64,000 nt of DNA, taken from positions 22,866 through 86,865 of the forward strand of contig CAJWTS010000001.1 of assembly GCA_913047795.1 (NCBI GenBank), given 5' to 3'. Source of the DNA: an uncultured Verrucomicrobiota bacterium. GTDB lineage: Bacteria > Verrucomicrobiota > Kiritimatiellia > CAJWTS01. This document shows positions 1 to 16,047 of this stretch, piece after piece. Positions within the stretch are counted from its first letter, which is position 1; each line of letters begins with the position of its first letter. Both the position numbers and the translations under genes were made by a program. A model generated the notes under the pieces. The model was not told where the DNA came from and made no database searches. It worked only from the letters and a program-made list of their open reading frames with translations.

Positions 1-1371
1 TACACCGAGTTTGGGAAATCGCGCCGCCAGGATGCTGCCTACGCGCGCGGACAGATAGCCAATCACCACCTGGGCAACGGCGCTATTGCGAAGTACGTCG
101 ACTGGGTGGCGCGCAACACGCCGCTCAACCCCGAGGCGGAGGACGCTGAGCTTGCCCAGCGAATCGCCATAGCGGACGATGTCGCTCGTCGCTGGAAAGG
201 CGGCAATTCCGCCGGCCGTGCACGAAGCAAATCAAGGCAGGTCCGGTTGCATCGCGAATACCTGGCCTATGTTCGCGCCACCCGGGAAGATTTCGAGGCG
301 GTCGACCGCGCCTGGGAGTGGCACCGCCGTCACATCGCGGCGGCCGCGCTTGCGGGCGTGTCGGAAAAGAAGGTTTCGCACGCGGATGCGCTGGCGTATC
401 TCGCGGAACGGATGGGCAAGAACGGGGATTGGGCGGTGCACCAGAAGGTGTTGTGGATGCACTTGCACCAGATCCGCGAGACCGGCGGGATTCGCTCGGC
501 GATCCAGGGCGCCATGGTCTTTGTTGATTCGTACAAAGGCGATCGCTGGCCACTTTACGATGCGTTGCTGGCGGCCACGCTCGCGGTCGACCGCGAGTCG
601 GCGCATGTTCCGCGTGTCGCCAATAAGGCGCTCGAATACGCGCACACCGTGAAGCGGCCCGATTCGCAATGGACTTGCTACAGTGGACTGATCGAGCGCT
701 TGCTGGGGCCCCTGGGCGAAGCGGCGATCTGTCAGATCGTACTCGCAAAGGCCAACGAATTTGTGCGGACATCACCGTTGGATGGCGATCGTGATACCCG
801 CCTGGTCTGGCTCTCCGATCAACTGAAGGCGAATGAGTTCTATAAACAGGCGCTACGCCAGTTGGAGCCGGTGACGCACGTGGCCTTGCGCGAGTTCAAG
901 CGTTACGGGATTGTCGGACCCTCGATGGGCGAGTGGAAGAAGGCAATCGACATCCTGATCACGGTCGAAAATACGAACGATGCGCATTACGAACCGTTGG
1001 CCCGTGAGGCGCGCGCGCAGGCGTATAAGCTTCAGCTGAAAGATTTTAAGAAGGCGATCGCGCTCTTTTACGAAATCAGCGATCCGCCGCGTACGCTTTG
1101 GGAGATCCAGGATTGCTACCTGCGCTGGGACCGGCTCAACGACGCCTGCAACACATTGAAGGAGATTGAATCGATGTTCCCGACACAAGCCGCACGTGCC
1201 GCCTGGACACGGACCTCGTATTATCACCGGCAGAAAATTCGACCCAAGACGATTGCTGAGGCACGCCGCATCCTGAAGATTTATCCCAAAACCCGCGAGT
1301 CGTCGCAGGCCCACCAGTTGCTGGAACGCTACGGCATTGCGACGGGCGGCGGTGTTCTGGAGGACGGATAG
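1..1371 (+). CDS. Hypothetical TPR-like protein, 5' partial. The frame is open from base 1; the listed ORF begins at an internal GTG at 106.
   Basis: The reading frame stays open from position 1 to the stop at 1371. The amino-acid composition is protein-like and not a GC shadow. Helical-repeat character continues into the next TPR gene, whose start abuts this stop (TAG then ATG at 1372). Confidence 0.4.
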   Translation, partial: YTEFGKSRRQDAAYARGQIANHHLGNGAIAKYVDWVARNTPLNPEAEDAELAQRIAIADDVARRWKGGNSAGRARSKSRQVRLHREYLAYVRATREDFEAVDRAWEWHRRHIAAAALAGVSEKKVSHADALAYLAERMGKNGDWAVHQKVLWMHLHQIRETGGIRSAIQGAMVFVDSYKGDRWPLYDALLAATLAVDRESAHVPRVANKALEYAHTVKRPDSQWTCYSGLIERLLGPLGEAAICQIVLAKANEFVRTSPLDGDRDTRLVWLSDQLKANEFYKQALRQLEPVTHVALREFKRYGIVGPSMGEWKKAIDILITVENTNDAHYEPLAREARAQAYKLQLKDFKKAIALFYEISDPPRTLWEIQDCYLRWDRLNDACNTLKEIESMFPTQAARAAWTRTSYYHRQKIRPKTIAEARRILKIYPKTRESSQAHQLLERYGIATGGGVLEDG

Positions 1372-3591
1372 ATGATGAGGATATCCGATTTGCACCGGGT
1401 TCTGATCCTGGCCGCCATCGCGGCGACGGCTGTCGTTGCGGCACCGGAGAAGCCGGAGCGCGGGAACGAGGAGTATCGTGCGTATTCGCTCTACAAGCGT
1501 GCGTTGGGCTATCTCGAGACCAAGAATGATGATCAGGCGGAACAGTTGCTGGCGGACATTCCGCGCTTGTTTCCCAAGACGTCTGTGCGTTTCAGGGCGC
1601 GCCTGGCACTGGGCGCCCATTTCGTGCAGACCCGCCGCTTTCCCGAGGCGATCGAGCAATTCCGCGCGCTGAAAGCGTCGGACGAGCCCGATCAGCGTGC
1701 CGAGGCGCTGTATCGCATGGGGATTTGTCATTACGAGATGAATGCGTACGACCAGGCCTTTGTTTCCCTGCGACAGGTGACCACGACCTATCCCTGGAGT
1801 GTCTGGGCCAACGAATCGTACTACTACATCGGCCTCTGCCATTTTCAACTCAAGCGCTGGACGCGCGCCTACGAGGCCCTGAAGCGAGTCGGCCTCAGCG
1901 TCGCTCCCAACCAGGAGCACACGAGCGCGGAAGCCGGGCAGCGACTCTGGATCAAAGTCGCCGATAAGGACCTGGTGTCGGTTCTTCGAACGGATTCCAA
2001 CGGCGTTCCGGTAACCGTGCAGGTCTTGAGTGGCGATCGCGAAGTTTTGCTCCTGCGGCGCAACAACGAAGAGGCCACCGAGAGTATCGCCTCGATCGAG
2101 ACCACGCCGGGCGCACCGGTGCCGGACGACGGGCGGCTGCAACTGATCGGAAACGATCTTGTGACGGTGACCTATGTTGACGAGACGACGGGTGACGGCG
2201 TGCATGACCATAAGGTCGTGGCCTCGATCCGCATGGTGTCCACAGCCGCGGCGGGATTCACGGATGGCGCATATCGCGATTACGCCGACGGCTTGTTCGG
2301 CAACCAGGCGGCCTTTGTCCGCGTCAAGGATCTCGACGAGAACACGACACCGATGCGCGACACGGTTCGGGTGCGTGTTGCAACGGCGTATCGACGCGCG
2401 ATCGAGGAGACCGCGCCGGACGATTTCGCGTCATCCGAACCGATCGACCCCTACGTTGAGCGCGATGTTGTGTTCGTCAATTTGACGGAGAGCGAGAAAC
2501 ACAGCGGGATCTTTCACGGCATGGTCGTGCCGGCTCTGGTGACGAACGAGGTCGACGGCGTGGCGCTGACGCCCGCGCAGTTGGCGCGGTTGATCAATCA
2601 AAAGGACGACATCCTGACGGCGATTGCGGGTGACCGGATTACGATGGAATATGTGGACACGTTGCATCTCGAAGGCGAAGAATCGCGCGCCCTCTCGTAT
2701 TCCACGATCGTCCTGTCCGCTCGCCGGCAGGACGTCGAAGCCACGCAGTGGGTGGTGCGCGATCAGGATCTTCGCGCGCGGAAGAACATTGTTGAAGCCC
2801 AGATCTTTCTGAAGCTCGGCCAGATCTTCAAGGAGGTGGGCTTGCAGGCCAAGGCCGTCGAGAAGGCGTCGCTGGGATTGGACCGCGTGGATGTCGTGAT
2901 TCGCCAGGGCCTGGATCGCAGTGTCGAACGCGTCCTGGTCGAGGAGGCCTTCAGTATCAAGTGGGATCTGCAACTCGTGCAGGATCGACTGCGCGATGCC
3001 GTCACGACCTGTAATGCCCTGCTCAAGCTTTTCCCCGAGTCCACTGTGGCGGACAAGGCGCTACTTAAGATCGGTATCGCGAAGCTGCAGTCAGATTATC
3101 CCGACGAATGGGAAGATGCCGCGTCTGTTTTCCGCTCGATTCAGCGCCTGAAGACATCCGACTTGAAGGCCGAGGCCCAGTTCCGCCTGGCGGAGACGCT
3201 GGAGAAGATCGGGTACGAACGACAGAAGGACGCCGAGAACCCCACGATCAGTTCGGCGGCTATCGTGGCGTACCGCACCTGTGCGAACCGTTGGCCGGAC
3301 ACGGTATTTGCCGGGCTTGCGCTGGAGAAGATCGTGCAGTTCTACATCGACTCCGAGGATTATACGCGCGCGATCGATATGATGGAGATGGTTTTTCAGG
3401 ATTTCGAGGATGCGGCGTTTCTGGATGTGATGCTGCTCAAGTGGGCCATCGCCGCACATCGATTGGGCCATCGCCAGATTGCCCTGGAGAAATTACACCG
3501 CCTGATCGCGGAGTATTCGGACTCGAAAGTCATTCGCACGGCGGTGCGCTTTCGCGAACGGCTTGAACGTGCCGATGTCGGAATGAAATAA
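1372..3591 (+). CDS. Secreted tetratricopeptide-repeat (TPR) protein
   Basis: N-terminal signal peptide (MMRISDLHRVLILAAIAATAVVAAP). Many TPR-like helical repeats, for example AEALYRMGICHYEMNAYDQAF, ESYYYIGLCHFQLKRWTRAYEAL and DKALLKIGIAKLQSDY. 739 aa. Confidence 0.6.
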   Translation: MMRISDLHRVLILAAIAATAVVAAPEKPERGNEEYRAYSLYKRALGYLETKNDDQAEQLLADIPRLFPKTSVRFRARLALGAHFVQTRRFPEAIEQFRALKASDEPDQRAEALYRMGICHYEMNAYDQAFVSLRQVTTTYPWSVWANESYYYIGLCHFQLKRWTRAYEALKRVGLSVAPNQEHTSAEAGQRLWIKVADKDLVSVLRTDSNGVPVTVQVLSGDREVLLLRRNNEEATESIASIETTPGAPVPDDGRLQLIGNDLVTVTYVDETTGDGVHDHKVVASIRMVSTAAAGFTDGAYRDYADGLFGNQAAFVRVKDLDENTTPMRDTVRVRVATAYRRAIEETAPDDFASSEPIDPYVERDVVFVNLTESEKHSGIFHGMVVPALVTNEVDGVALTPAQLARLINQKDDILTAIAGDRITMEYVDTLHLEGEESRALSYSTIVLSARRQDVEATQWVVRDQDLRARKNIVEAQIFLKLGQIFKEVGLQAKAVEKASLGLDRVDVVIRQGLDRSVERVLVEEAFSIKWDLQLVQDRLRDAVTTCNALLKLFPESTVADKALLKIGIAKLQSDYPDEWEDAASVFRSIQRLKTSDLKAEAQFRLAETLEKIGYERQKDAENPTISSAAIVAYRTCANRWPDTVFAGLALEKIVQFYIDSEDYTRAIDMMEMVFQDFEDAAFLDVMLLKWAIAAHRLGHRQIALEKLHRLIAEYSDSKVIRTAVRFRERLERADVGMK

Positions 3592-3635: not shown

Positions 3636-4277
3636 ATGCTGCAGTATATTCTGGATGGTGGAGTCATGATGGTGCCGCTGCTGGCGCTTTCGATTCTTGC
3701 GGTAGCGGTCATTATCGACCGCCTACGTGTTTTTCGACTGGCCGATGTCGATAACGACGCGATGCGGGAACGAATTCATACTGGTTTGCGCGGCGGGGCC
3801 ACGGGCGAAGCCGTGCAGGCTTGTCGTGACTTCGAGGGACCGGCCGCGGCCGTGATGCTCGTGGGCCTGCAAGGCTATGACGAGATTAACAGTCGCGGAC
3901 GCGCGCGCGACGAGGTCGAGACCTTCGTCGCGCAGTCCATGCAGGACTATGCACCCCACGTTCTCGACTTGCTGGAGCAACGCTTGAACATCCTGGCGAT
4001 GGTTGGAACCGCGGCGCCCTTGATCGGCATGACCGGCACGGTGGTGGGTATGATCATGTCCTTCAATAGCATGGCCCAGGTTGGCGGATTAGATGCCGGT
4101 GCCGTGGCAAGCGGTATCTCGCTGGCATTGGTGACGACTGCGGCGGGGCTGATCATCGCAATTCCATCGGTGATTTATCACAACGTCTTCTCGCGCAAAG
4201 TGGATCGCCACCGGTTGCAGATCGAGGAATCGGCGAACGCGCTGATCCGATTCATCGCGCTGGAGTCGCGCCCCTAG
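3636..4277 (+). CDS. exbB: MotA/TolQ/ExbB proton-channel family protein
   Basis: Three TM helices. Conserved C-terminal core LIGMTGTVVGMIMSFNSMAQ...ALVTTAAGLIIAIPSVIYHNVF is typical of ExbB/TolQ. Confidence 0.85.
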   Translation: MLQYILDGGVMMVPLLALSILAVAVIIDRLRVFRLADVDNDAMRERIHTGLRGGATGEAVQACRDFEGPAAAVMLVGLQGYDEINSRGRARDEVETFVAQSMQDYAPHVLDLLEQRLNILAMVGTAAPLIGMTGTVVGMIMSFNSMAQVGGLDAGAVASGISLALVTTAAGLIIAIPSVIYHNVFSRKVDRHRLQIEESANALIRFIALESRP

Positions 4278-4293
4278 GCCGCGGCCGAATATC

Positions 4294-4731
4294 GTGAAGT
4301 TACGACCTCCAATTGTCACGCGGGCGAAGCCGACGCCCGAAATCGACATGGTTTCGTTTTCGGATATTGCGTTCCTGCTGATCATCTTCTTTATTTTGAC
4401 CACCACCTTCGTTCGCAACTACGGTCAGGACCTGGACCTGCCATCGGGCACCCGCGACACGCGCGAGGAGCGCGATGGCGTGACGACAATCACGATTTCA
4501 CCGGATGAGCTTTACTATAACGACGAGGAAGAGCCGGTGACATTGAAGGATCTCCGGCAACGCCTGCAGGCACAGCAGTTTGCGGCGCGGCCGGCGGCCG
4601 AGCGTATCGTACTGGTCGAGAGCGCACCATCGGTGCTCTGTGAGAAGTATTACCGGGTGGTCGCTGCCGTTGCGAACGCGGGCGGTGTGCTGGCGATGCT
4701 CGAAGAAGAACGCGAGGGCGAGGGCAAATGA
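4294..4731 (+). CDS. exbD: Biopolymer transport protein ExbD/TolR
   Basis: N-terminal motif PEIDMVSFSDIAFLLIIFFILTTTF (conserved D in the TM helix) followed by a periplasmic domain. The stop overlaps the next start (ATGA at 4728-4731). Confidence 0.8.
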   Translation: MKLRPPIVTRAKPTPEIDMVSFSDIAFLLIIFFILTTTFVRNYGQDLDLPSGTRDTREERDGVTTITISPDELYYNDEEEPVTLKDLRQRLQAQQFAARPAAERIVLVESAPSVLCEKYYRVVAAVANAGGVLAMLEEEREGEGK

Positions 4732-5129
4732 GACTAGCGCAACGCAGCAGGATCCTGCCTCGTGTCCCCCTTGCGCCGATGGGCGATATCGCGTTCCTGC
4801 TGATCATTTTTTTCATGGTGACGTCGGTCTTTATCCGGGAAGCCCACCTCGAGGTGACCCTGCCGGAGGCGGCGGAGATCGAGCGCCTGCGCGACGCGCA
4901 TGTGTCGGTCACCATGGATCGCGACGGGAAGCTGTGGTTACAGGGGGAGCCCTGCGGCGTCCAAGAACTACTGCTGCGACTCGACACCGAACTGGGCACG
5001 CGTGTTGACAAGACTGTGATGTTGAAGATCGATAAGGATGTTCACCAGGCGAGTTTTGCGCCCTTGTTGCGCATCCTGAGCGAAACGGGAGCGCGGATCG
5101 CCTGGCTGGGGCAGGACCGCCGGTACTAA
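4728..5129 (+). CDS. exbD: Biopolymer transport protein ExbD/TolR (second copy)
   Basis: PMGDIAFLLIIFFMVTSVF TM motif, paralogous to the upstream ExbD. Translationally coupled to it. Confidence 0.8.
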   Translation: MRLAQRSRILPRVPLAPMGDIAFLLIIFFMVTSVFIREAHLEVTLPEAAEIERLRDAHVSVTMDRDGKLWLQGEPCGVQELLLRLDTELGTRVDKTVMLKIDKDVHQASFAPLLRILSETGARIAWLGQDRRY

Positions 5130-5156
5130 CCAACCCTGCCATGTGAAGGAGAGCCA

Positions 5157-5552
5157 ATGACAAACGAACAGAACGTTGATCCGGGTGATTTGGTGCAGGG
5201 CCTTCGTGCGGGGCAGCCGCTGTCCGGTGCGCTGGTCAAGTCCCTCGTCATCCATGGCGCGGTTGTCCTCCTGACGTCGATACCGTATCTGGCCAAAGTG
5301 TTGCACTATGGATCCTTCGACATTCGCGCTGCCGCCGCTGTCGAGCAGGCGGTTACGGATGCATCTCCGGCGCCCGCAAAAACCGCAACCGACGCGGAGA
5401 CGAAGCCGGCCATCCAGGCGGATGACGCTCCGTCTGCGCCGGCCGCCGACATGGATAAACCTGTCGTGCCTGACGCGCCGTCTGCCGGCGAGGTGAGCCG
5501 CGAAAAACCCGCCGATTCGAGTATGAATGTCGATGATGAGTATGGCCTCTAG
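5157..5552 (+). CDS. Single-pass membrane protein with a Pro/Ala-rich periplasmic tail. It resembles the TonB N-terminal anchor and spacer but lacks the TonB C-terminal domain.
   Basis: RBS GGAGAG 7 nt upstream of the ATG. One TM helix (LVKSLVIHGAVVLLTSIPYLA), then a spacer of the form AxxAPAPAKTATDAETKPA...APSAPAADMDKPVVPDAPSA. Only 131 aa. Confidence 0.45.
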   Translation: MTNEQNVDPGDLVQGLRAGQPLSGALVKSLVIHGAVVLLTSIPYLAKVLHYGSFDIRAAAAVEQAVTDASPAPAKTATDAETKPAIQADDAPSAPAADMDKPVVPDAPSAGEVSREKPADSSMNVDDEYGL

Positions 5553-5555
5553 TCG

Positions 5556-7187
5556 GTGAACATGTGGCCCTACGTCACCAGCGCTTTCTACGCGATTGCG
5601 GAACAGGTCCACCGCGCGACGGTCGCGGTGCTGACGGTGTTGGCGCGTGCTGCGGACCGCGTCATGCGGCATGTGCCGTGGGTATGGCGGCTGGCCGGTC
5701 TTTCTGCGTTGACCGGCGCGCTGCACCTCTTCGCCGGATTCCGGATCGAGCGCGCCTGGCCGGCCCTTTTCGAAGTTACGGCCGAGCAGCTTAGCGTATT
5801 GTCCAGGGCCGGGTGGATCGAGTCGTTGCGGATTGCGGCGGCCTGTTCGGTCGTTTTGGGCGCGTACAGCATCGCCATCGCCCCGCTCGGTATCCTTCGC
5901 CGCCGCTGGGTTCTGACACTGTACAAGATCGCTGCGGCGGCCAACGCGGTGCTGTCGGTCGTCTTTCTGCACCTGCTTCTTTCCGGGCCCGGCGTTCTGC
6001 TACGGGATGTCCAGGACTTTTCTCGGTTCGTTCGCAACGAGATGTGGCTGGGCGGCCTTGCGATCTGGTTGCCGTTTGGATTTGTTGCCGCGCTGTTCCT
6101 GGTGAGCCTGCTCTGCCGCGGGGCGACGCAGGCGATGGACACCGCGGTCGAGGCACCCGATTGGGGGGATCGCTTTTTTGCCGACATTCGCGAAGGCGGC
6201 GAGGATCCGCGCTACCGCTCCTCGTCATATTGGGCCGGGTTCCTGCATCTTTTTGTGCTCGTGCTGGTCCCGCTGATGATGCGCGGCTGCGGTTGGGAGG
6301 CGCCCTATACCCTGCCCGAAGGCGCCGGCAGCGAGATGATCGTGATGAAGATGAAGAAAATCAAGAAGCCGATCGAACGCGACAAGCTGATCTTGTCGAT
6401 GGACACCGATATTCTCTACTACCAGCCCGACCCGGACGAGAGCGATATCCTGCGGGAGACGGATGTCGAAACCGAACATGAATACGTGGCGCAGGGCGTC
6501 GAGGGGCGCCTGGGCGCGGATGGCGAGGCTGGAGGTTGGCGCAGTGTCTTCAGTGGGCGGGTACGGTTTATCCGGCTCGTATATTCCGGGGGCGACTGGG
6601 ACCAGGATCTCGCGGCGGGCGCCGATCGCAACATGCTGCGCAAATTCAAGGAGGTCACCGGGTATGCGGTCGCACGCCGGACCGAACAGATTGCCGTCAA
6701 CCGCCTGCGGTTTTTCCCAAAAGGCGGCGAACCGCCCTTTGTTTTTATGACGGGCATGGGAGGCGTGAATCTGTCGCGGCACGAGGCCCGCGTCCTGCGC
6801 GATTACTGCCTGCGTGCCGGTGGAATGATTGTCGCGGACAACGGCGGCGGATCGTTTAACGCCAGTTTCCGGGCAGCCATGCGCCGGGTCTTTCCCGATA
6901 AGGAGTGGATCATGTTATCGAACGACGATCCGGTTTTTCGCTATCCTTTTCTGTTTCCTGATGGCGCTCCGCCGCTGTGGCATCACAGTGGGCGCAAGGC
7001 CGTCGGGCTGCGGCACAACGGGCGGCTGATCTGCTTCTACCACCAGGGGGACCTGAACGATGCCTGGAAGGACGGACATTCCGGTGTGAGCGACGGGTTG
7101 GCCAACCAGGCGTACAAACTCGGAATCAACCTGATCTACTACGCGTTCAAGCACTACACCAGTCGCCAGCGGGACGACGTCGACTGA
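5556..7187 (+). CDS. Multi-TM membrane protein with a C-terminal DUF4159-like domain
   Basis: N-terminal ~260 aa has several hydrophobic helices. The C-terminal region carries RFIRLVYSGGDWDQD...FVFMTGMGGVNLS...GGMIVADNGGGSF...LICFYHQGDLNDAW, which resembles the DUF4159 family (GG-W motif). Start is GTG 5556 or ATG 5562. Confidence 0.55.
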   Translation: MNMWPYVTSAFYAIAEQVHRATVAVLTVLARAADRVMRHVPWVWRLAGLSALTGALHLFAGFRIERAWPALFEVTAEQLSVLSRAGWIESLRIAAACSVVLGAYSIAIAPLGILRRRWVLTLYKIAAAANAVLSVVFLHLLLSGPGVLLRDVQDFSRFVRNEMWLGGLAIWLPFGFVAALFLVSLLCRGATQAMDTAVEAPDWGDRFFADIREGGEDPRYRSSSYWAGFLHLFVLVLVPLMMRGCGWEAPYTLPEGAGSEMIVMKMKKIKKPIERDKLILSMDTDILYYQPDPDESDILRETDVETEHEYVAQGVEGRLGADGEAGGWRSVFSGRVRFIRLVYSGGDWDQDLAAGADRNMLRKFKEVTGYAVARRTEQIAVNRLRFFPKGGEPPFVFMTGMGGVNLSRHEARVLRDYCLRAGGMIVADNGGGSFNASFRAAMRRVFPDKEWIMLSNDDPVFRYPFLFPDGAPPLWHHSGRKAVGLRHNGRLICFYHQGDLNDAWKDGHSGVSDGLANQAYKLGINLIYYAFKHYTSRQRDDVD

Positions 7188-7245: not shown

Positions 7246-8442
7246 TCAGGCCTTGATGCAGTCCAGCGGCTGAATGTTCTTGCCGCCGCGCGCGAAGTCG
7301 AAACCGAGGTTCCACCAACGCCGCGAGATCGTCTCGTACAGACAGCGATAATCGAGAGTGTGGTTCATGTCGCCGTCCTTGCGCAAATCCTTGAGCGAAG
7401 GCTGGTGGCCGAAGAAGCCGCCCTTGACCTTGCCGCCCAGGATGAAGTGCGGTGCGCTGGTCCCGTGATCGGTCCCCATGCTGCCGTTCTCCTTCACGCG
7501 ACGTCCGAACTCGGAGTAGGTCATGACCATCACCTTGTCCCAGAGGCCGGCGACTTTCATGGACGACTTGAACGCCGAGATACCGTCGTTCAACTGCGAG
7601 AGTAGTTGTTGGTGACGGTTGGCCTGTCCGGAATGGGTATCGAATCCACCGATCGAAACCTTGATAGCCGCAAAGGGAATCTTCGATACAACCATGTCGG
7701 CGACAAGATTCATCTGTTGGCCGAAGCCATCGTTGCCGAATTCCACCGGGTGCTCCGGCGGCTCTTTCATGCGTGCGCGCAGCATTTCAACGGCCTTTGT
7801 CAGGTCGTTCTCCACGCCCATGATATGCGCGAGGGCGTCGGTCGGGCCCTTGCCCGTGCTTTCGCGCGTATCCTGCGCGCGTTCGATGAATTCTTTTGCG
7901 TCTCGCATAATCAGGCTGCGAATCCCGCGACCGCGCAGCGGGCCGGCATCGCCGCGCCCGATCACGATTCCGTCCGCGACGTTCTCGTCCGGACTCGGGT
8001 TCTCCTGGAACATGCGGGTCAACCAGCCTTCACCCATATACTCATCGCTGTTTGCTGCGGTGTGCCAGATGTCGATCGAGCGGAAATGCGAACGGTTCGG
8101 GTTTTCATAGCCGCAGCCGAGCGCGACCGCCAGTTCGTCGTTACGCCACGACTGATGGAGACTGGCCAACGCCGGGTGCAATCCGAGTTTTTCGTCAAGG
8201 CGCAGCACGCCGTCCCGGTCGAAAGCGATATTTGGCCGAAATTCTTTGTATAGCGGGTCGGCGTATGGAATGACCGTATTCAGCCCGTCATTCCCACCCT
8301 TGAGTTCGATCAGGACCAGGATACGGTCCCAGTTGGGTGTTGATTTGAATGCGGAATCGGCTGTGGCGGCAAACAGGGACGGGGCCCAGATTGCCAGTGG
8401 TGCCGCGGACAGTGTCTTCATGAAGTCGCGTCGTTCGATCAT
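7246..8442 (-). CDS. DUF1501 family protein (Tat-secreted, sulfatase-like fold)
   Basis: Twin-arginine signal MIERRDFMKTLSAAPLAIWAPSLFAA. The body shows LIELKGGNDGLNTVIPY...GFDTH...TYSEFGRR...GTDHG, which is characteristic of DUF1501. Confidence 0.85.
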   Translation of the reverse strand: MIERRDFMKTLSAAPLAIWAPSLFAATADSAFKSTPNWDRILVLIELKGGNDGLNTVIPYADPLYKEFRPNIAFDRDGVLRLDEKLGLHPALASLHQSWRNDELAVALGCGYENPNRSHFRSIDIWHTAANSDEYMGEGWLTRMFQENPSPDENVADGIVIGRGDAGPLRGRGIRSLIMRDAKEFIERAQDTRESTGKGPTDALAHIMGVENDLTKAVEMLRARMKEPPEHPVEFGNDGFGQQMNLVADMVVSKIPFAAIKVSIGGFDTHSGQANRHQQLLSQLNDGISAFKSSMKVAGLWDKVMVMTYSEFGRRVKENGSMGTDHGTSAPHFILGGKVKGGFFGHQPSLKDLRKDGDMNHTLDYRCLYETISRRWWNLGFDFARGGKNIQPLDCIKA

Positions 8443-8502: not shown

Positions 8503-10170
8503 TTATTTTAGTTGAAAAGCGGGGTCGAGCAGAATGGAAGCAACCATATCCGTGCCCATCATCATGTCTTCGATACCGTGGACCGGCGCGATTGGTAGCA
8601 ACGTCTTCACCAAGCGTTTGCGGCCCTTGCCGTCGAGGCCCTTCTCCTTGATCCAGGTGTCCATGTCCATTGGTTTGAGCGATTTGAACTCCATCGCGAC
8701 CTGATCCTCGGGCTTCATCTGGTTGTCGAGGGCCTTGTCCACGGCGATGTCCATATCGCCGCTGGACGAATCCATCGAGATCTCCATGTCGTCGCCACCG
8801 ACCTCCATCATGTCTTCGAGCATGGACTTCTGGCCCTTGAGCAAATGCTCAATTTCGCGGCGCTCGCGGTCGGCACGCAGGCGCGCCAGGCGCCGTTGTT
8901 TCTGCCTGTTCTCGAAATTCTTTACGAATGCCTCGTCCGGCCGGGCCAGTACCAGGCGCGAAAGCTGGTGACGAGTAATCAGGGTATTGGCGTCGATCCA
9001 GTAGGCACCGCTTTTCCAGCCCGAGACATCCGGCGGTTGAAACAGGTTCTGCCCGAGCATGGTGCCGTACGCGCTGATCTGCTGCGACTGTGCCGGATGC
9101 GTTTCGAACATGCGGCAGGCACCGACGACCAGGTCGACCGGCGACTTGATCATGTTTCCGCGGTTCGCGCCGGCGCGAAAGTGATCGGACATCAAGATCG
9201 CGCGTGCCAACACCATCATGTCGTACTTGCTGTCGCGGAACTTCTTGGCAATGCTCTTGATCGCTTTCTCATCCATGTCCTCGGAGATGAAGTATTTCCA
9301 CATCTTCTCCGTCACGAATTCGGCCGTGCGCGGCAGCGCGAGGATGATCTGAACGATGTCGTCTCCGTCAAAATCGCCCGTCTTGCCGATAAACTTCTTC
9401 TCGCCAAAGTCGTGCAAGTTCTTTTCGAACTGGAACTTCTTGTTGAGGTTATTCACGCGCCAGCCGGTAAACGCGCGCGCGGCTTCCCGAACATCCTCTT
9501 CCGTGTAGACATGACCCTCGCCGAGCGTGAACAACTCCATCAGCTCGCGGGCGAAGTTCTCGTTCGGGTTGCCTTTTACGTTCGAGTTGTTGTCCAGGTA
9601 GATGATCATGGCGGCATCTTTTGTCGCCGCCATCACCAGGTCCGCAAAGTTTCCGAGCGCGTTGCTCCGAAACAGCTGGTTCTGTTGAAACATCAACTCC
9701 GCGGAATTGACAACGCTGATCTCCGACGTGAAATGGTTGTGCCAGAACAGCACCATGCGTTCGGTCATGGGCGACCGCGTGCGGATCATTTCGTTCCACC
9801 ACCAGGTTCGCATCTCCGTGATCCGGTTGCGGCGTTGCGCTTCCTGCCGGCGTCGAATGGCTGCGCGTTCGAGTTGCACGTCGGCACCGCGCATGCCTGC
9901 CAGGGCGCGCAGGCGCAGGGTAGAGAGACCGCCGACGGGTTCGTCGGCCCAGTAAGGTTTATCGGTCGTCGGCGCGTTTGTTACCGTGCTGAGAATGCTG
10001 TCAACCGCTTCTGTCCACGACAGTGCCGTCAGCTTTTCGATATCTTCGGGGGTTGCGCCGAAACCGGTGCGGTTTAAAAGGTGCCGCGCATCATCGAAGC
10101 TGATGGCGGAGGCAGACAGGGCGATGAAACAGACGACGGTGGAACAGAGAATGTACCAGCGCTTATACAT
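8503..10170 (-). CDS. DUF1800 family protein
   Basis: ARHLLNRTGFGATPEDIEKL and LFWHNHFTS motifs are typical of DUF1800. A signal peptide begins at MYKRWYILCSTVVCFIALSASA, so the start is placed at 10170, not at the ORF-track start at 10266. Confidence 0.8.
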   Translation of the reverse strand: MYKRWYILCSTVVCFIALSASAISFDDARHLLNRTGFGATPEDIEKLTALSWTEAVDSILSTVTNAPTTDKPYWADEPVGGLSTLRLRALAGMRGADVQLERAAIRRRQEAQRRNRITEMRTWWWNEMIRTRSPMTERMVLFWHNHFTSEISVVNSAELMFQQNQLFRSNALGNFADLVMAATKDAAMIIYLDNNSNVKGNPNENFARELMELFTLGEGHVYTEEDVREAARAFTGWRVNNLNKKFQFEKNLHDFGEKKFIGKTGDFDGDDIVQIILALPRTAEFVTEKMWKYFISEDMDEKAIKSIAKKFRDSKYDMMVLARAILMSDHFRAGANRGNMIKSPVDLVVGACRMFETHPAQSQQISAYGTMLGQNLFQPPDVSGWKSGAYWIDANTLITRHQLSRLVLARPDEAFVKNFENRQKQRRLARLRADRERREIEHLLKGQKSMLEDMMEVGGDDMEISMDSSSGDMDIAVDKALDNQMKPEDQVAMEFKSLKPMDMDTWIKEKGLDGKGRKRLVKTLLPIAPVHGIEDMMMGTDMVASILLDPAFQLK

Positions 10171-10348
10171 CAGACACTCCTTGGTTTTGACACTCCCCAG
10201 TGCAAAGCTTGTGCAACGACTAGCCGCTGCATTCATTATGGAAAAGCATCCGCGGCTGATTGTCAAGAAATATCAAGAAAACACAGCCGCGCGCAGAATG
10301 CTTGAGCGACCGCGGTCCGCCCCTGTAAGATCAAAAGATGCCATATCG

Positions 10349-12430
10349 ATGCTGAATCAACCCCATAGGCCCCCTAGTCCGATCCTTTTGATCGCCCGGT
10401 GGCCGGCTCTCGGGCTGGCCGGCCTGCTGCTTCTGGCTGTGGGCTGCGGACGCAAAGAGTCCCCGCGCGTGCCGCTGAACGTGCTTTTGATCAGCATCGA
10501 CACCTGCCGGGCGGATTACCTGGGTTGTTACGGAGCGGCCGTCAAAACGCCGGCAATCGACGCCCTGGCCGCCGACGGGGTTCTGTTCGAGACCGCGATT
10601 GCCCCCGTCCCGATCACCCTGCCGTCGCACGCAACGATGCTGACCGGTACGATTCCGCCCTTTCACGGCGTGCATGACAACAATGATCATCGCCTTGGTA
10701 AAGGCGCCACGACGCTGGCCGGACTCTTGAAGCCACGCGGCTACCGCACCGGCGCCATCGTTAGCGCCTTCGTGCTCGACCGACAGTTCGGACTGGACCA
10801 GGGGTTTGACACCTATGTGGATCGTTTCGGCGCGACGCGCGATGCGCCAACGGCGGAGCGCGTCGGCACCGAGACGAGCCGGCTCGCCCGGGACTGGCTC
10901 GACGGCAATTCCGGTCGCCCGTTCTTCCTGTTCGTCCACTTCTTCGATCCTCATTTTCCCTATGCCGCGCCGGCGCCGTTCGCGGAACGGCATACGGGGC
11001 GCCATGCGGCCTACGGCGGCGAGGTTTCGTATGCGGATCATTGCGTGGGCCAGGTGATCGAGCATCTTCGCGAGCGCGGACTCTATGATTCAACACTGAT
11101 CATCGTCACCTCTGACCACGGCGAGATGCTGGGCGAGCATGGCGAAGATTCGCACGGCTACCTTCTCTACCAGGGCGCGCTGCGCGTCCCGTTGGTTGTG
11201 CGATTGCCCCGCGGCGCGTCCGGCACGAGGGTCTCTGAACCCGTCGGCCTGGTCGATCTTGCCCCAACGGTCTGCGGCGTGCTCGACCTGCCTGTGCCGG
11301 AGGAAATGCACGGCTACCCACTCGTCGATTATCTGCGTGGCGGTCAGCCGAAGGAGTCCCTGCGCCTGTACTATTGCGAGAGCCTCTATGCGACGCGCTA
11401 CGGTGCGGCGCCACTGATCGGACTCGTCGCCGGGCGGTACAAGTACATCCATGCCCCGCGCCCGGAGTTGTATGACATTGCCGATGACCCGGCCGAGGCC
11501 CGCAATCTCTACGCCTGGCAGCGCGAGCAGGCCGCGGAGTATAAGAACGGTTTGCAGGGCATGCTGGATCGGTTCGCCCGCCCGGCCCCGATCGCGCAGT
11601 CCATCATGCTGAGCGAGCAGGATCGCGAACGGCTGGCAGCCATCGGCTATCTCGGCAGCGGGCAGGCCGCTGCCGACGGTGCCTTGCGGCTCGACCAGGA
11701 GGGTGATGACCCCAAGGACGTGTTGCCCTTCCATCGCATGAACGTGGAGGTGCCCCTTCTGATTGCTCAGGGCAAACACGCGCAGGCGCGACGCATCTGC
11801 GAGAACATGCTCGTCCGGCGCCCCGGCGTGTTCGACACCTTCATTCATCTTGCCGATATCGGCGCCGCTCTCGACGATCTGCCACGCATGGAGAACGCGC
11901 TGCGCATGGCACTTGCAATTAAACCCGATCATCCGCAGTCGCTGGTGCGCATCGGCATCGCCATATCGCGGCAAGAGCGCTTTGCCGAGGCGCGCGAACA
12001 TTTTTCGCGCGCGCTGCGGGTGCGGCCCGGCTACGTCTTTGCACTGGATAGTCTCGGCGTCTGCGTAGCCGAAGCGTCCCGCGCCGCGAAAGATCCCGCC
12101 CTGCGGCACAAGGGCCTGCGCGAAGCGGCAGGGCATTTCGAGGACGCGTTGGCCGCAGACCCCGATTATGCACCGTCCATGCGCAACCTGGGGGCAGCCT
12201 ACATGGACCTCGGCCGCAGCGATGATGCCATCCTTCAGTTCCGAAACGCGCTGCGACTCGTGCCGCGTGACGCTGACCTGCATACCCATCTCGCCCTGGC
12301 GCTGGAGGAAACGGGTGCGCGCAGTCAGGCTATGGCCCATCTGCGCAAGGCGCTTGAGATTCGCCCCATGTTCACCGCCGCGCGGCAGCACCTGATCAAG
12401 CTGGAGCAGAAAGGGGGCTCGGGCGAGTGA
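10349..12430 (+). CDS. Lipoprotein sulfatase (alkaline-phosphatase superfamily) with a C-terminal TPR domain
   Basis: Lipobox LLLAVGC after the start at 10349. Sulfatase core includes SIDTCRADYLGCYG (formylglycine C-x-x-R site), FLFVHFFDPHFPY and IIVTSDHGEMLGEHG. The C-terminal 250 aa are TPR-like (ALRMALAIKPDHPQSL..., NLGAAYMDLGRSDDAILQF). The ORF-track start at 9986 would overlap the DUF1800 gene on the opposite strand. Confidence 0.8.
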   Translation: MLNQPHRPPSPILLIARWPALGLAGLLLLAVGCGRKESPRVPLNVLLISIDTCRADYLGCYGAAVKTPAIDALAADGVLFETAIAPVPITLPSHATMLTGTIPPFHGVHDNNDHRLGKGATTLAGLLKPRGYRTGAIVSAFVLDRQFGLDQGFDTYVDRFGATRDAPTAERVGTETSRLARDWLDGNSGRPFFLFVHFFDPHFPYAAPAPFAERHTGRHAAYGGEVSYADHCVGQVIEHLRERGLYDSTLIIVTSDHGEMLGEHGEDSHGYLLYQGALRVPLVVRLPRGASGTRVSEPVGLVDLAPTVCGVLDLPVPEEMHGYPLVDYLRGGQPKESLRLYYCESLYATRYGAAPLIGLVAGRYKYIHAPRPELYDIADDPAEARNLYAWQREQAAEYKNGLQGMLDRFARPAPIAQSIMLSEQDRERLAAIGYLGSGQAAADGALRLDQEGDDPKDVLPFHRMNVEVPLLIAQGKHAQARRICENMLVRRPGVFDTFIHLADIGAALDDLPRMENALRMALAIKPDHPQSLVRIGIAISRQERFAEAREHFSRALRVRPGYVFALDSLGVCVAEASRAAKDPALRHKGLREAAGHFEDALAADPDYAPSMRNLGAAYMDLGRSDDAILQFRNALRLVPRDADLHTHLALALEETGARSQAMAHLRKALEIRPMFTAARQHLIKLEQKGGSGE

Positions 12431-12561: not shown

Positions 12562-14799
12562 ATGACAACAAAGTCATCCTATCTGCGGTTGGTGGCCGGC
12601 CGGCCCTGCCTGGTCGCCGGCGATGCGATCCTGGCGCCGATATACTCGGAAACGTTCGCGGATGGCATGCATCGGCGCAATGCCTTGATGGCTGCCGCGG
12701 GCATCCATGTGTTTACACTTATCGTGCGCGGATTGCGCGAGGGCGATTATCATACGACGCCGTTCTGGACCGGTCTCGACGCCTATGGCGACGAAACGGG
12801 AAGGGATGACGGCCTGTCCCTCCACGACCAGGCGTCCGCGATTCTCGATGCGCAGCCGGATGCGCGCTTCGTCCTGCGCTGGTCCTCTAAGGTTCCCGCG
12901 GCCTGGGCTGAGGAACGGCCGGACGATCTGCAGGTAGCCGACGGGCCACCGCGCCGTGAATCGTCCTACGCCTCGCAGGCGGCCGCAGAGGGACGCGCCG
13001 CGATGGCGCGCCGGATCGTGGCCTACGTCGAGAAACAGGCCTGGGCGGACCGGGTGCTCGGGTACCTGCTCTATGCGCAGGATGAAGGCACCCTTCATCT
13101 GGTGAACGAAGAATCAATGTTCGACCGCTCGCCCGTGATGCGCGCTGCGTTCCGCGCGTTCCTGGCCGAGGCTTACGGCGACGACAATGGATTGCAGCGC
13201 GCCTGGGGCGATCCGGCGGTGGGACTCGCCGATGTGCAAGCACCAACGCAGACGGAGTGGGTGCGTGACCGATCGAAGGGGCAACACTGGCCGGACCCGG
13301 GCGCGACGCGGCGCTATCGTGACTATTTCCTGTGCGTGCGCAAACAGCTGCAGATGCAGCGGCGCATGGAACTGGCGGCGGTCCGTGACGCCGCGTCCCG
13401 ACCGGTCTTCGCGGCGACCGACGCGTTCAAGCAGGCGATGTTCGGGTGGCTGCTCAGAGACGCCTTCCAGGCCGCGGGCGACGGTATGCATTGGCGCAAC
13501 AATTTGCTGGGCTCCGGCTCGGTCGACGTCGGCTCCATGCTGGACATGCCGGAGTTGGACGCGCTGGTGACACCGGCGGATTACTCCGCGCGATCGATCG
13601 GGTTCGGCTGGGAGCCGGAGGGAATCGGGGACTCGATGGTGCTGCGCGGCAAGACGATATTCATTGAAGACGACGCGCGTAGCTGGGTTGCGCAAGACGC
13701 GGCGACACAGGGCGCATGGCGCGATCCGGGAGAGGCCCGCGCCGGCCTCTTGCGTAACGCGGCTGTTGCGGCCAGTCGCGGATTCATTCCGTTCTGGATG
13801 AACATCGGCAGCAAGCAGTACGAGGACCCCGCGCTGCGCGGGGTGATCGAAGAACTTGTGCCGGTCCAGCAGCGACTCTTTGGGCGTCCGCACGGGCATA
13901 CTGAACACGCGATCGCGATGATCATCGACGATACGAGCCCGCTCGAGGAGGACTTCACCAGCGGGTACCAGAACCTCGCGGTTCTGCGGCAGCGCGTGGA
14001 TCACCTGGCGCTGACGGGGCTGCCGTATCGTGTCTACCTGTTAACGGATCTTGAACGCGATGATTTCCCTGTCTTTCGCGCGTACCTCTTGCCGAACCTG
14101 TTTCGCCTCGACCCCGAACGCCTCGAGCTTATCCGCGCCCGCCTGATGCGCAATGGTTCGGTCGTGATTTTCGGACCGGCGACCGGCGTCAGCGACGGGC
14201 ATCACCTGAGCGCCGAACCCGCCCAGGCGTTATTCGGGATGCCGATGGAGCTTGTCGAGCGCGAGGTTGCGCGGCGCGTAATGGTTCGGCCCGCGCCGGA
14301 GCTGCCGGGTCTGGCTGCTGCGATGACCTACGGGGACAGCCATGTATACGGACCCATCTTGCAGCCGGTCGTGAACGCGTTGCCTGATTCGGTCATCGAG
14401 TTGGGCCGCTGCTCAAGCTGGTACGGCTACAACGGGCCCGGCCTGTGCCTGCGTTCGTGTGGCCATGGCGCGTCGGGGAACGGCCTGGCGGGTGTCCGCG
14501 CAGCCGGTGATTGCGCGCTCGTCTTCTCCATGGCCGTACCTCTTCCGGCCGCGGTATTGCGCGCGCTCGCGATTCTCGGGGGCTGTAATCCCTGGTCGGC
14601 ACTGGGTGATGTGGTCGCCGCCGATGCGCACATGGTCGCGGTGCATAGTGCAGCCGGTGGGCAGCGGCAGATCAGGCTTCCCGAGGCGATGCGCGTCGTG
14701 GACGCGGTCAGCGGTGTCGAGCTTGATTCGGCCTGTCGAACCGTCGACATAGCGCTCGAAAGTCCTGATACGCGGATCCTGTTGACGGATCATCCATAG
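12562..14799 (+). CDS. Large hypothetical protein (745 aa); possibly glycoside-hydrolase-like, function unknown
   Basis: Long ORF with balanced protein-like composition; the antisense ORFs inside it are Arg/Pro-rich shadows. No motif I can assign with confidence. Confidence 0.5.
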   Translation: MTTKSSYLRLVAGRPCLVAGDAILAPIYSETFADGMHRRNALMAAAGIHVFTLIVRGLREGDYHTTPFWTGLDAYGDETGRDDGLSLHDQASAILDAQPDARFVLRWSSKVPAAWAEERPDDLQVADGPPRRESSYASQAAAEGRAAMARRIVAYVEKQAWADRVLGYLLYAQDEGTLHLVNEESMFDRSPVMRAAFRAFLAEAYGDDNGLQRAWGDPAVGLADVQAPTQTEWVRDRSKGQHWPDPGATRRYRDYFLCVRKQLQMQRRMELAAVRDAASRPVFAATDAFKQAMFGWLLRDAFQAAGDGMHWRNNLLGSGSVDVGSMLDMPELDALVTPADYSARSIGFGWEPEGIGDSMVLRGKTIFIEDDARSWVAQDAATQGAWRDPGEARAGLLRNAAVAASRGFIPFWMNIGSKQYEDPALRGVIEELVPVQQRLFGRPHGHTEHAIAMIIDDTSPLEEDFTSGYQNLAVLRQRVDHLALTGLPYRVYLLTDLERDDFPVFRAYLLPNLFRLDPERLELIRARLMRNGSVVIFGPATGVSDGHHLSAEPAQALFGMPMELVEREVARRVMVRPAPELPGLAAAMTYGDSHVYGPILQPVVNALPDSVIELGRCSSWYGYNGPGLCLRSCGHGASGNGLAGVRAAGDCALVFSMAVPLPAAVLRALAILGGCNPWSALGDVVAADAHMVAVHSAAGGQRQIRLPEAMRVVDAVSGVELDSACRTVDIALESPDTRILLTDHP

Positions 14800-14832
14800 A
14801 CAGGCCTCGCGGCCGGTTGTATCATTTAAGCA

Positions 14833-16047
14833 ATGGAACTCTACCGCGTTCGACAGCATCTGGTATCGAACCCCATCGCCGACGTCACGGCGGAGGTGCG
14901 CGCCCGGCTTGACGCAGCCGAGCTCGACGTGCCGCGCGGCGAAATTGCCATCACGGCCGGCAGCCGCGGCATCGCCAATATCGCGGCGATAACGCGTGCC
15001 GTCGGCGACTGGCTGAAGGACCGCGGTGCAAAACCCTTCATCGTTCCCGCCATGGGTTCCCACAACGGGGCCACGGCGGAAGGTCAGCAGAACATGATCG
15101 AGTCCTTTGGCATCACCGAAGACGCGATGCAGATGCCGATTCGCGCGAGCATGGAGGTCGTCGAACTCGGTCGCGTGGCAACGGGACCGGTATTCATGGA
15201 TAAGTTCTGCCATGAATCGGCGGGTGTGATGGCGATCAATCGTATCAAGCTCCACACCTGTTTTGCAGGCGCGATCCAGAGCGGGCTGACGAAGATGACC
15301 GTGATCGGCATGGGTAAGATTCAATCCGCCGAGACGTTTCATTCGACACCGACGCCGGTCATGAAAGAGATGTTGACCCAGATGGGACAGGTGATCGTTG
15401 ACTCCGGAAAAGTGATCGGAGGGGTTGCCATCCTGGAGGACGGCTTCGACCAGACAGCGGAGATCCATGCCCTGCGCGGCGCGGAGATCCTACGGCGCGA
15501 GCCGGACCTCGTGGAGCGGCACAAGGCCTACTTTCCCCGCCTGCCCGTCGATGAATTGCGCGTGTTGGTTGTGGAGGAGATGGGCAAAAATTTCAGCGGG
15601 ACGGGCATGGACCCGAATGTCATCGGCTACCGGGGTGTAAAGGACTACGACGGCACCGAAGATCCCAGCATCCAAATCATTGCCGCGCTGCGCCTGCATG
15701 CCAAATCGCAGGGCAACGCGATCGGTGTCGGGCTTGCCGATTTTATCACGCGTGAGCTGCGCGATGCGATCGACGAGCAGAAGACGTTTATCAACGTCTT
15801 CACCACGGGCGAAATGATTCGGATGAAGATTCCCGCGACGCTGCCTTCGGATGAGGATGTCGTAAACACGATTCGCGGTCGCTACGGAGACGAGGGCTGG
15901 ATGTTCATTCCGAACACCTTGCACCTCGAAGAACTTTATATCTCGTCGGACCTGCGCGACGAGGTGGGGGCGCGAAATTGTGACGTCGATGGCGAGCCGA
16001 CAGAACTCACGTTCAGCGGCGGACGGCAGCAGCTCGCGTTTGCCTAG
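14833..16047 (+). CDS. Hypothetical protein, possibly LarA/DUF2088-like (uncertain)
   Basis: 404 aa with diverse composition. An antisense 351-aa ORF over it was rejected. A weak resemblance to lactate-racemase-like N-terminal domains is a guess only. Confidence 0.4.
   Translation: MELYRVRQHLVSNPIADVTAEVRARLDAAELDVPRGEIAITAGSRGIANIAAITRAVGDWLKDRGAKPFIVPAMGSHNGATAEGQQNMIESFGITEDAMQMPIRASMEVVELGRVATGPVFMDKFCHESAGVMAINRIKLHTCFAGAIQSGLTKMTVIGMGKIQSAETFHSTPTPVMKEMLTQMGQVIVDSGKVIGGVAILEDGFDQTAEIHALRGAEILRREPDLVERHKAYFPRLPVDELRVLVVEEMGKNFSGTGMDPNVIGYRGVKDYDGTEDPSIQIIAALRLHAKSQGNAIGVGLADFITRELRDAIDEQKTFINVFTTGEMIRMKIPATLPSDEDVVNTIRGRYGDEGWMFIPNTLHLEELYISSDLRDEVGARNCDVDGEPTELTFSGGRQQLAFA

Follow-up and report, generated by a model that had tools for sequence, protein, structure and literature searches.

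Two routes are known by which the proton energy of the inner membrane reaches the outer envelope of Gram-negative cells, the Tol-Pal and the TonB systems. Bacteria of the Planctomycetes–Verrucomicrobia–Chlamydiae (PVC) group include abundant marine and gut glycan degraders, the Planctomycetes have an atypical cell plan, and Tol-Pal is described as 'largely reduced' in Planctomycetes (PMC8871954). PVC loci in which a gene for a tetratricopeptide repeat (TPR) protein, tolQ and two tolR genes accompany a His-anchored transducer with a vWA domain have been reported to represent a novel kind of force transducer whose function is unknown (Mol Biol Evol 2025, PMC12204202), and AlphaFold3 models of this PVC vWA family place the His-bearing transmembrane (TM) helix at the motor rim (PMC12204202). 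Here we analyse a cluster of related design in a window of 64,000 nt (the whole stretch of DNA studied, positions 22,866 to 86,865 of contig CAJWTS010000001.1 of an uncultured Verrucomicrobiota bacterium), on a scaffold from Tara Oceans station 85, mesopelagic. The cluster encodes a TolQ/ExbB-like protein, two ExbD/TolR paralogues, a short TolA/TonB-like protein that we call the stub, and an inner-membrane protein ending in DUF4159 (DUF, domain of unknown function), preceded by genes for secreted TPR proteins. It is best read as a Tol/Ton-like machine built on a 5 : 2 motor, part of the logic of which was anticipated in 2025 (PMC12204202). The two kinds of locus have in common their PVC taxa, a TPR-protein gene, a gene that resembles tolQ, two heterologous tolR-like genes and a conserved His in the TM helix of the transducer; the split architecture differs, however, in that one protein has both anchor and vWA domain there, whereas here the anchor and the DUF4159 globular domain are on separate proteins. 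An earlier note on this stretch, made from the sequence alone, had spoken of an undescribed function; 'undescribed' has to be softened, since the 2025 paper flagged related PVC loci, but no function was assigned there either. The module, found in four PVC lineages, joins a Tol-like motor, a headless transducer and a DUF of solved structure. Its features in the window, all on the forward strand, are these:

1–1371 (+), 3′ part (456 codons) of the gene for a 640-aa secreted TPR protein with YbgF/BamD-like TPRs; the frame is open from base 1
1372–3591 (+), gene for a 739-aa secreted protein, TPR followed by an immunoglobulin (Ig)-like middle and further TPR
3636–4277 (+), gene for the TolQ/ExbB-like proton-channel subunit, 213 aa (MotA_ExbB, PF01618, E=1.4e-30)
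4294–4731 (+), gene for ExbD/TolR paralogue 1 (ExbD1), 145 aa (PF02472, E=3.6e-18)
4728–5129 (+), gene for ExbD/TolR paralogue 2 (ExbD2), 133 aa (PF02472, E=1.4e-21)
5157–5552 (+), gene for the stub TolA/TonB-like transducer, 131 aa (no Pfam or NCBIfam family)
5226–5288 (+), TM helix of the stub, residues 24–44, KSLVIHGAVVLLTSIPY, with S29-x3-H33 (His33 codon at 5253–5255)
5508–5549 (+), conserved C-terminal motif of the stub, P118...NVDDEYGL (from the orthologue alignment)
5556–7187 (+), gene for the 543-aa inner-membrane DUF4159 protein with five TM helices (PF13709, E=9.8e-35)
5682–6284 (+), five-TM bundle of the DUF4159 protein, residues 43–243 (hydropathy and AlphaFold2)
6564–7148 (+), DUF4159 domain, residues 337–531, class-I glutamine-amidotransferase-like alpha/beta fold (Pfam)

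The five ORFs between 3636 and 7187 lie exactly where the earlier note had placed them, and its view that these tightly spaced genes form one unit agrees both with their spacing (a 4 nt overlap of ExbD1 and ExbD2 and gaps of 3–44 nt elsewhere) and with an order conserved across loci. Alternative public gene calls begin ExbD1 at 4348 (127 aa) and the DUF4159 protein at the ATG at 5562 (541 aa). Scans for promoters and terminators gave no more matches than in shuffled sequence.

The motor proteins stand closer to Tol than to Ton. Against the NCBIfam models, the 213-aa protein scored 111.9 bits for TolQ (TIGR02796, cut-off 221) compared with 73.7 for ExbB, and TolR was the best match of both ExbD paralogues, far below its cut-off; all equivalog scores were below cut-offs. 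The best match of the 213-aa protein in the PDB is E. coli TolQ (8odt, 1.3e-16, full length), and the pore Thr residues and the TM3 Pro of TolQ, the roles of which have been described (PMC12905483), align in it. The TM motif of ExbD1, SDIAFLLIIFF, contains an Asp, and ExbD2 matches the ExbD of PDB 7ajq (2.6e-4) with its own TM Asp aligned to the Asp of the ExbD TM helix; Asp25 is an essential residue of ExbD (PMC12905483). The two paralogues are 25% identical and each retains its position across the surveyed loci, which indicates that the duplication is old; the ExbD1/ExbD2 axle is probably a heterodimer. By their sequence features, the TolQ-like protein and the two TolR/ExbD paralogues, each with a TM Asp, are recognizable as predicted parts of a 5 : 2 proton-driven motor, the 213-aa protein presumably being the pentameric part. 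Of the defence-system models in PADLOC, ZorB alone gave a match, a marginal one to ExbD1 (E=0.0055), and a Zorya or other MotAB-based defence system was ruled out for that reason.

From its cytoplasmic N-terminus the stub runs through a single TM helix into a linker rich in Pro and Ala, and it closes with a short acidic motif at the C-terminus. The earlier note had described it as a TonB-like anchor with a Pro/Ala-rich spacer and no TonB C-terminal domain, and this description holds: it matches no Pfam family at E<=1 and no NCBIfam family and has no room for a globular domain, and HMM searches over 5157–5552 and the N-terminal part of the gene at 5556 detected neither a TonB_C nor a TolA C-terminal domain. 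In nearly all loci the interval from ExbD2 to the DUF4159 gene is occupied by one ORF of 130–240 aa; of the 64 such orthologues having a TM helix, 63 share a His at one and the same point of that helix. The alignment of 40 orthologues shows no variation at His33 or Ser41; the residue four before the His is Ser in class 1 and mostly Ala in class 2 (the classes are defined below). In cryo-EM structures, TonB and TolA contact TM1 of ExbB and TolQ through the SHLS motif, Ser-3X-His-6X-Leu-3X-Ser (PMC12905483). The stub has the first half of this motif (S29-x3-H33), and so appears, as far as a short motif can be read, to carry the TM signature that TolA and TonB use for docking at the motor rim. 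Its helix aligns without gaps to the anchors of E. coli TolA and TonB.

Beyond the membrane comes a linker with much Pro and Ala in the window, and with much Lys, Glu and Ala in most relatives; the C-terminus has a near-invariant Pro118 followed by an ending of the type hydrophobic-x-hydrophobic-D/E-D/E, with the variants NVDDEYGL or FEYGDDLSLD in class 1 and DDLGISIDDTN in class 2. We infer that this acidic/hydrophobic motif is a putative docking peptide. In the 17 loci from which both segments were extractable, the tail is acidic (mean −2.7) as against a basic stretch after TM5 of the DUF4159 protein (mean net charge +5.2). Longer stubs (197–441 aa; L009, L013, L018, L019, L039, L060, L068 and L076) have a zinc-ribbon-like CxxC...CxxC extension at the cytoplasmic N-terminus.

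As the earlier note had proposed, the 543-aa protein crosses the membrane several times and has DUF4159 in its C-terminal part, PF13709 scoring above the gathering score at residues 337–531. Judged from hydropathy and counts of Lys plus Arg in 73 sequences, there are five TM helices and the N-terminus faces inward, and in the AlphaFold2 model (pLDDT 84) the five-TM bundle reaches 90–98; a conserved cytoplasmic loop (residues 188–223, GDR...GG.DPR.R.S) lies within the bundle. Some DUF4159 proteins bear an N-terminal forkhead-associated (FHA) domain (PF00498/PF16697; L004:8001-9989 and proteins P0069, P0070, P0075, P0078, P0079, P0081–P0083 and P0087). These fusions agree with an N-in topology, from which a periplasmic location of the DUF4159 domain is predicted. 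They also imply control from the cytoplasm that depends on Ser/Thr phosphorylation, and taken together with the zinc-ribbon fusions of the stub in relatives they suggest cytoplasmic control more generally. Among 1.84 billion representative proteins, the five-TM domain occurred in the DUF4159-protein family alone, with no fusion to other periplasmic domains.

The DUF4159 domain has a class-I glutamine-amidotransferase-like alpha/beta fold, as in PDB 4i66, and is distantly related in fold to ThuA and to the GIFT domain of IFT52; vWA was not among the 60 best matches listed. Polar residues are conserved (R340, D349, D357, H496, D499, D502 and N525). No Cys of the domain is conserved and the catalytic Cys-His-Glu triad of class I glutamine amidotransferases was not found in it, so that DUF4159 as an active glutamine amidotransferase was ruled out. 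A finding of DUF4159 proteins in unrelated contexts, without ExbBD, had been named in the earlier note as a point that would tell against its proposal: such an occurrence exists for the domain itself, since the only solved DUF4159 structure, the 209-residue chain of 4i66, comes from outside an ExbBD context, but the link to ExbBD holds for the multi-TM subfamily (five-TM in class 1) and does not extend to every protein with DUF4159. In the literature searched, the term 'DUF4159' turned up in the Pfam paper only, and the cluster gives this domain its first strong functional context.

A first search with the DUF4159 protein returned 110 full-length homologues from contigs labelled Planctomycetota, Verrucomicrobia and Lentisphaerae, and the order of eight genes, the five listed above plus three for TPR proteins, was identical in three diverse contigs. 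A scan of 185,579 species genomes, one genome per species, yielded at least 462 related loci, the best 80 of which are labelled almost without exception Lentisphaerae/Victivallales, Kiritimatiellia, Verrucomicrobiota or Planctomycetota. In a survey of gene neighbourhoods such as the earlier note had proposed, tblastn placed ExbB-ExbD-ExbD, in this order, directly 5′ of the DUF4159 gene in 68/68 loci for which 2.5 kb or more of upstream sequence was available, and the ExbB-ExbD-ExbD-DUF4159 arrangement is far beyond chance. Synteny is nearly universal in its family, and the cluster may bear on the biology of the PVC envelope; it extends the catalogue of 5 : 2-motor machines and names concrete genes for genetics in tractable PVC species. 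Five loci (L032, L070, L073, L077 and L082) and the protein P0217 carry the labels Anaerovoracaceae, Anaerolineales, Nealsonbacteria or Magnetococcus; since the distribution is otherwise strictly PVC, these are probably cases of mis-binning and not genuine occurrences.

The cluster extends beyond the left edge of the window. Two TPR proteins had been noted upstream of the motor genes, and TPR genes are indeed present, but the ORF at 106–1371 is incomplete and a third TPR gene lies further upstream. On L005, which is the same scaffold with 10 kb of extra upstream sequence, the 640-aa gene starts 552 nt before the window (positions 1–1371 of the window are identical to part of L005:8078-10000) and is preceded by a gene for a 2473-aa TPR-containing protein (L005:657-8078), which makes the conserved cluster one of eight genes. 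All three TPR proteins (2473, 640 and 739 aa) have signal-peptide-like N-termini, and their TPR modules find their best matches in YbgF/CpoB and BamD. For the TIGR02795 model, with a curated cut-off of 90.1 bits, the C-terminus of the 2473-aa protein scores above it (99.6 bits) and the 739-aa protein gives a match of this type just under it (84.2 bits); the match of the 640-aa protein is also sub-threshold (E=7.8e-12). The 739-aa protein consists of TPR at about residues 29–171, a beta-rich Ig-like part at 184–448 and TPR at 465–738. Besides its YbgF-like C-terminus, the 2473-aa protein has TPR at about residue 1112 and, at about 2063–2179, weak Ig-like matches to an anammox S-layer protein.

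TPR genes lie directly upstream of the core in 51 of the 56 loci with enough further flank. Thirty of the 56 have the arrangement of the window, here called class 1, with the 640-aa gene directly 5′ of the 739-aa gene in these 30 loci; 21 have one giant TPR gene directly before ExbB (class 2), and the five-gene core stands without adjoining TPR genes in the other 5. The order is permuted in L046, where the giant, 640-like and 739-like TPR genes are found downstream of the ExbB-ExbD-ExbD-stub-DUF4159 core. The class 2 DUF4159 family comprises more than 1000 protein clusters, and its members have the same multi-TM layout, cytoplasmic loop motif and Lys-rich stretch. In class 2 there is an extra gene 3′ of the DUF4159 gene, encoding a conserved 329-aa protein with two N-terminal TM helices and no Pfam or NCBIfam family; it is found at L081:11410-12399 and at the equivalent position in about 20 class-2 loci, and in L081 and L072 it is followed by a gene for a DUF6785/DUF6784 membrane protein. 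A 113-aa DUF6787 protein is encoded just 5′ of the 2473-aa gene (L005:256-597) and is not conserved in the other loci examined; together with DUF6784/6785 beside class-2 clusters it may reflect a run of DUF numbers that share a neighbourhood. Downstream of class 1 no gene is conserved between loci, and the class-1 unit is for this reason taken to end at 7187; in the window, the gene 3′ of the DUF4159 gene is on the opposite strand and convergent. Both classes occur within single metagenome-assembled genomes (contig pairs L006+L057, L011+L058 and L014+L069), which argues for two non-redundant functions.

Our current working hypothesis is that the products of the five core genes (3636–7187) and of the three TPR genes work together as a single Tol/Ton-type envelope machine, in which the stub would dock on the motor through its His helix, pull through its linker and engage a partner from the same operon with its tail, in a Tol-like role in envelope maintenance; we put the probability of this reading at roughly 0.55. 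The stub would thus be the force transducer. Its linker would extend into the periplasm, and its acidic tail of about ten residues would probably dock on the partner either by strand addition or by fitting into the groove of a TPR. One candidate partner would be the predicted periplasmic DUF4159 domain, which has a conserved basic stretch and which five TM helices would tether to the inner membrane; the other would be the three secreted CpoB/BamD-like TPR proteins (2473, 640 and 739 aa), which might form a scaffold spanning the periplasm. Proton flow would then drive cyclic pulling on, and remodelling of, this scaffold, and the machine may serve a Tol-Pal-like maintenance of the envelope or outer membrane in PVC bacteria in which canonical Tol-Pal is reduced.

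Tol-Pal is the best analogy because the motor resembles TolQ more than ExbB and the TPR modules are like those of YbgF/CpoB. The cluster shares with it the full-length TolQ similarity, TolR/ExbD-type partners with a TM Asp, an S-x3-H single-TM protein with a periplasmic linker, and secreted TPR proteins whose modules best match YbgF/CpoB. It differs in having two TolR paralogues instead of one, a stub without TolA domain III, three TPR proteins of very large size where Tol-Pal has the small CpoB, an extra five-TM DUF4159 protein, and no TolB or Pal. With TonB-ExbB-ExbD it has in common MotA_ExbB and ExbD family proteins, the Ser-x3-His anchor and, in the window, the Pro/Ala-rich spacer, whereas the stub lacks the TonB C-terminal domain and ends in a short acidic peptide, and no gene for a TonB-dependent transporter was found in the loci whose gene lists were examined (the window with L001 and L005, L002–L004, and L081). 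The earlier proposal of an envelope machine driven by the proton-motive force, akin to Tol-Pal rather than to TonB uptake, is consistent with this TolQ-like motor and the lack of a TonB-dependent receptor in the loci examined.

Several observations weigh against our working hypothesis. The Lys-rich stretch after TM5, taken alone, argues for a cytoplasmic DUF4159 domain. In the stub helix the Leu and second Ser of SHLS are off the canonical spacing, the invariant Ser standing at His+8, and a profile of 40 stub proteins run against the PDB gave low-complexity matches only, with no TolA or TonB chains, so that homology of the anchor rests on a short motif, architecture and synteny. The loci with genes examined contain no Pal, TolB, TonB-dependent transporter or beta-barrel. 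The presence of paralogous classes in one genome, finally, suggests at least two roles, and a single housekeeping function is not assured.

The alternative that survives best, though we consider it unlikely, is that the machine powers a route independent of TonB-dependent receptors by which macromolecules, for instance sulfated polysaccharides or mucin glycans, enter the periplasm, as a PVC counterpart of 'selfish' uptake, with the TPR/Ig-like scaffold handling the cargo and the GIFT/ThuA-like DUF4159 domain binding sugar. The hosts are PVC bacteria, both the window and L002/L003 have sulfatase genes close to the cluster, the window also has DUF1501/DUF1800 genes, and the distant relationship of the DUF4159 fold to ThuA and the IFT52 GIFT domain would fit with sugar binding. 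Accumulation of glycans in the periplasm is known from Verrucomicrobiota (PMC13174399), and the MUL1 locus of Akkermansia muciniphila, also a PVC host, offers a parallel: mul1A (Amuc_0544) is described as a mucin transport gene required for mucin use (PMC12570417), and two genes away Amuc_0546 is listed as a 'biopolymer' transporter (PMC11480725), a name given to ExbB/D-type genes. The sole sequence link to MUL1, however, is one weak match in the cluster to Mul1B (NCBIfam name 'putative transporter subunit', E=0.017), not repeated in any of the 10 orthologues scanned, and homology to MUL1 stays unsupported by this route. MUL1 synteny is, moreover, reported to be absent from aquatic Akkermansiaceae (PMC13174399). 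No CAZyme (carbohydrate-active enzyme) or transporter is conserved in the cluster, and the downstream genes vary between loci. Mul1A is presumably a TPR protein.

It is also conceivable, if quite improbable, that the output resides in the DUF4159 protein, as an enzyme or signal receiver with a periplasmic domain switched by the motor, from which the FHA variants relay to cytoplasmic Ser/Thr phospho-signalling; the whole would then be a sensor coupled to the proton-motive force rather than a mechanical machine. The invariant polar residues of the domain, the conserved cytoplasmic loop and the FHA fusions are in keeping with such a role, but the domain lacks the catalytic Cys of the glutamine amidotransferase fold, His496 is replaced in the aligned sequence of the one solved structure, and three giant secreted TPR scaffold proteins would be hard to explain.

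We hold out little prospect for a machine for surface motility or adhesin transport like Agl-Glt of Myxococcus, which nevertheless follows the same logic, combining a TolQ-like protein with two different (heterologous) TolR-like proteins, TonB-like single-TM proteins (GltG/J) and large TPR proteins (GltD/E); gliding was raised as a possibility for the sister vWA family by its authors (PMC12204202). The NCBIfam matches to GltE (E=0.007–0.023) and GltG (E=0.52) are weak, far below cut-offs and situated in low-complexity or TPR regions, and amount to no significant sequence match; no genes for the Glt outer-membrane barrel or other Glt outer-membrane proteins, or for an adhesin, were found in the loci examined, Agl-Glt has no DUF4159 protein, and the lineages concerned come from diverse habitats (marine, gut and other metagenomes). 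Gliding is not known from these lineages. Finally, an ordinary TonB system, in which the stub would be a degenerate or mis-called TonB, the motor would serve TonB-dependent transporters encoded elsewhere and the DUF4159 gene would be an unrelated neighbour, is hardly credible even though ExbB-ExbD-ExbD operons commonly serve TonB and the S-x3-H anchor and Pro-rich spacer are TonB-like, since the headless stub with its own C-terminal motif is conserved in about 60 loci from four phylum-level lineages and is therefore no truncation, the DUF4159 gene comes next in 68/68 loci, no gene for a TonB-dependent transporter occurs in the loci examined and the motor is nearer to TolQ than to ExbB.

It is tempting to speculate further, and we do so tentatively. 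The eight-gene module and class 2 together might be the PVC group's own trans-envelope energy-coupling machine, replacing the logic of TolA-TolB-Pal, of TonB and its receptors, or of both. A docking-peptide transducer would in that case pull a giant TPR/Ig-like scaffold by way of the DUF4159 membrane partner, and the machine may power the entry of polymers, independent of receptors, into the enlarged periplasm of Planctomycetes and Verrucomicrobia.

Other features of the window may be noted briefly. An antisense ORF (4968–5972, − strand, 334 aa) overlaps ExbD2 and the stub gene as well as the first part of the DUF4159 gene; its Arg/Pro-rich product is typical of a spurious ORF in GC-rich DNA. 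Convergent to the cluster is a DUF1501/DUF1800 gene pair (7246–8442 and 8503–10266, both on the − strand), a combination common in PVC bacteria, which is not conserved beside the cluster in other loci. At 9986–12430 (+) a sulfatase is fused to a C-terminal TPR region (693 aa in the public gene call), and unrelated sulfatases lie near the cluster in some other loci. Two proteins of 745 and 404 aa, encoded at 12562–16047 (+), have no Pfam family and no counterpart in the loci compared. The 1357-aa product of 16508–20581 (−), a reprolysin-like metallopeptidase of the M12B type that also contains PKD-like, P-domain and DUF11 modules, is probably a secreted protease. The genes at 20628–25959 (+), which encode three xylose-isomerase-like TIM-barrel proteins, a fatty-acid desaturase and an NAD-dependent epimerase, may form a cluster for the modification of sugars or inositol.

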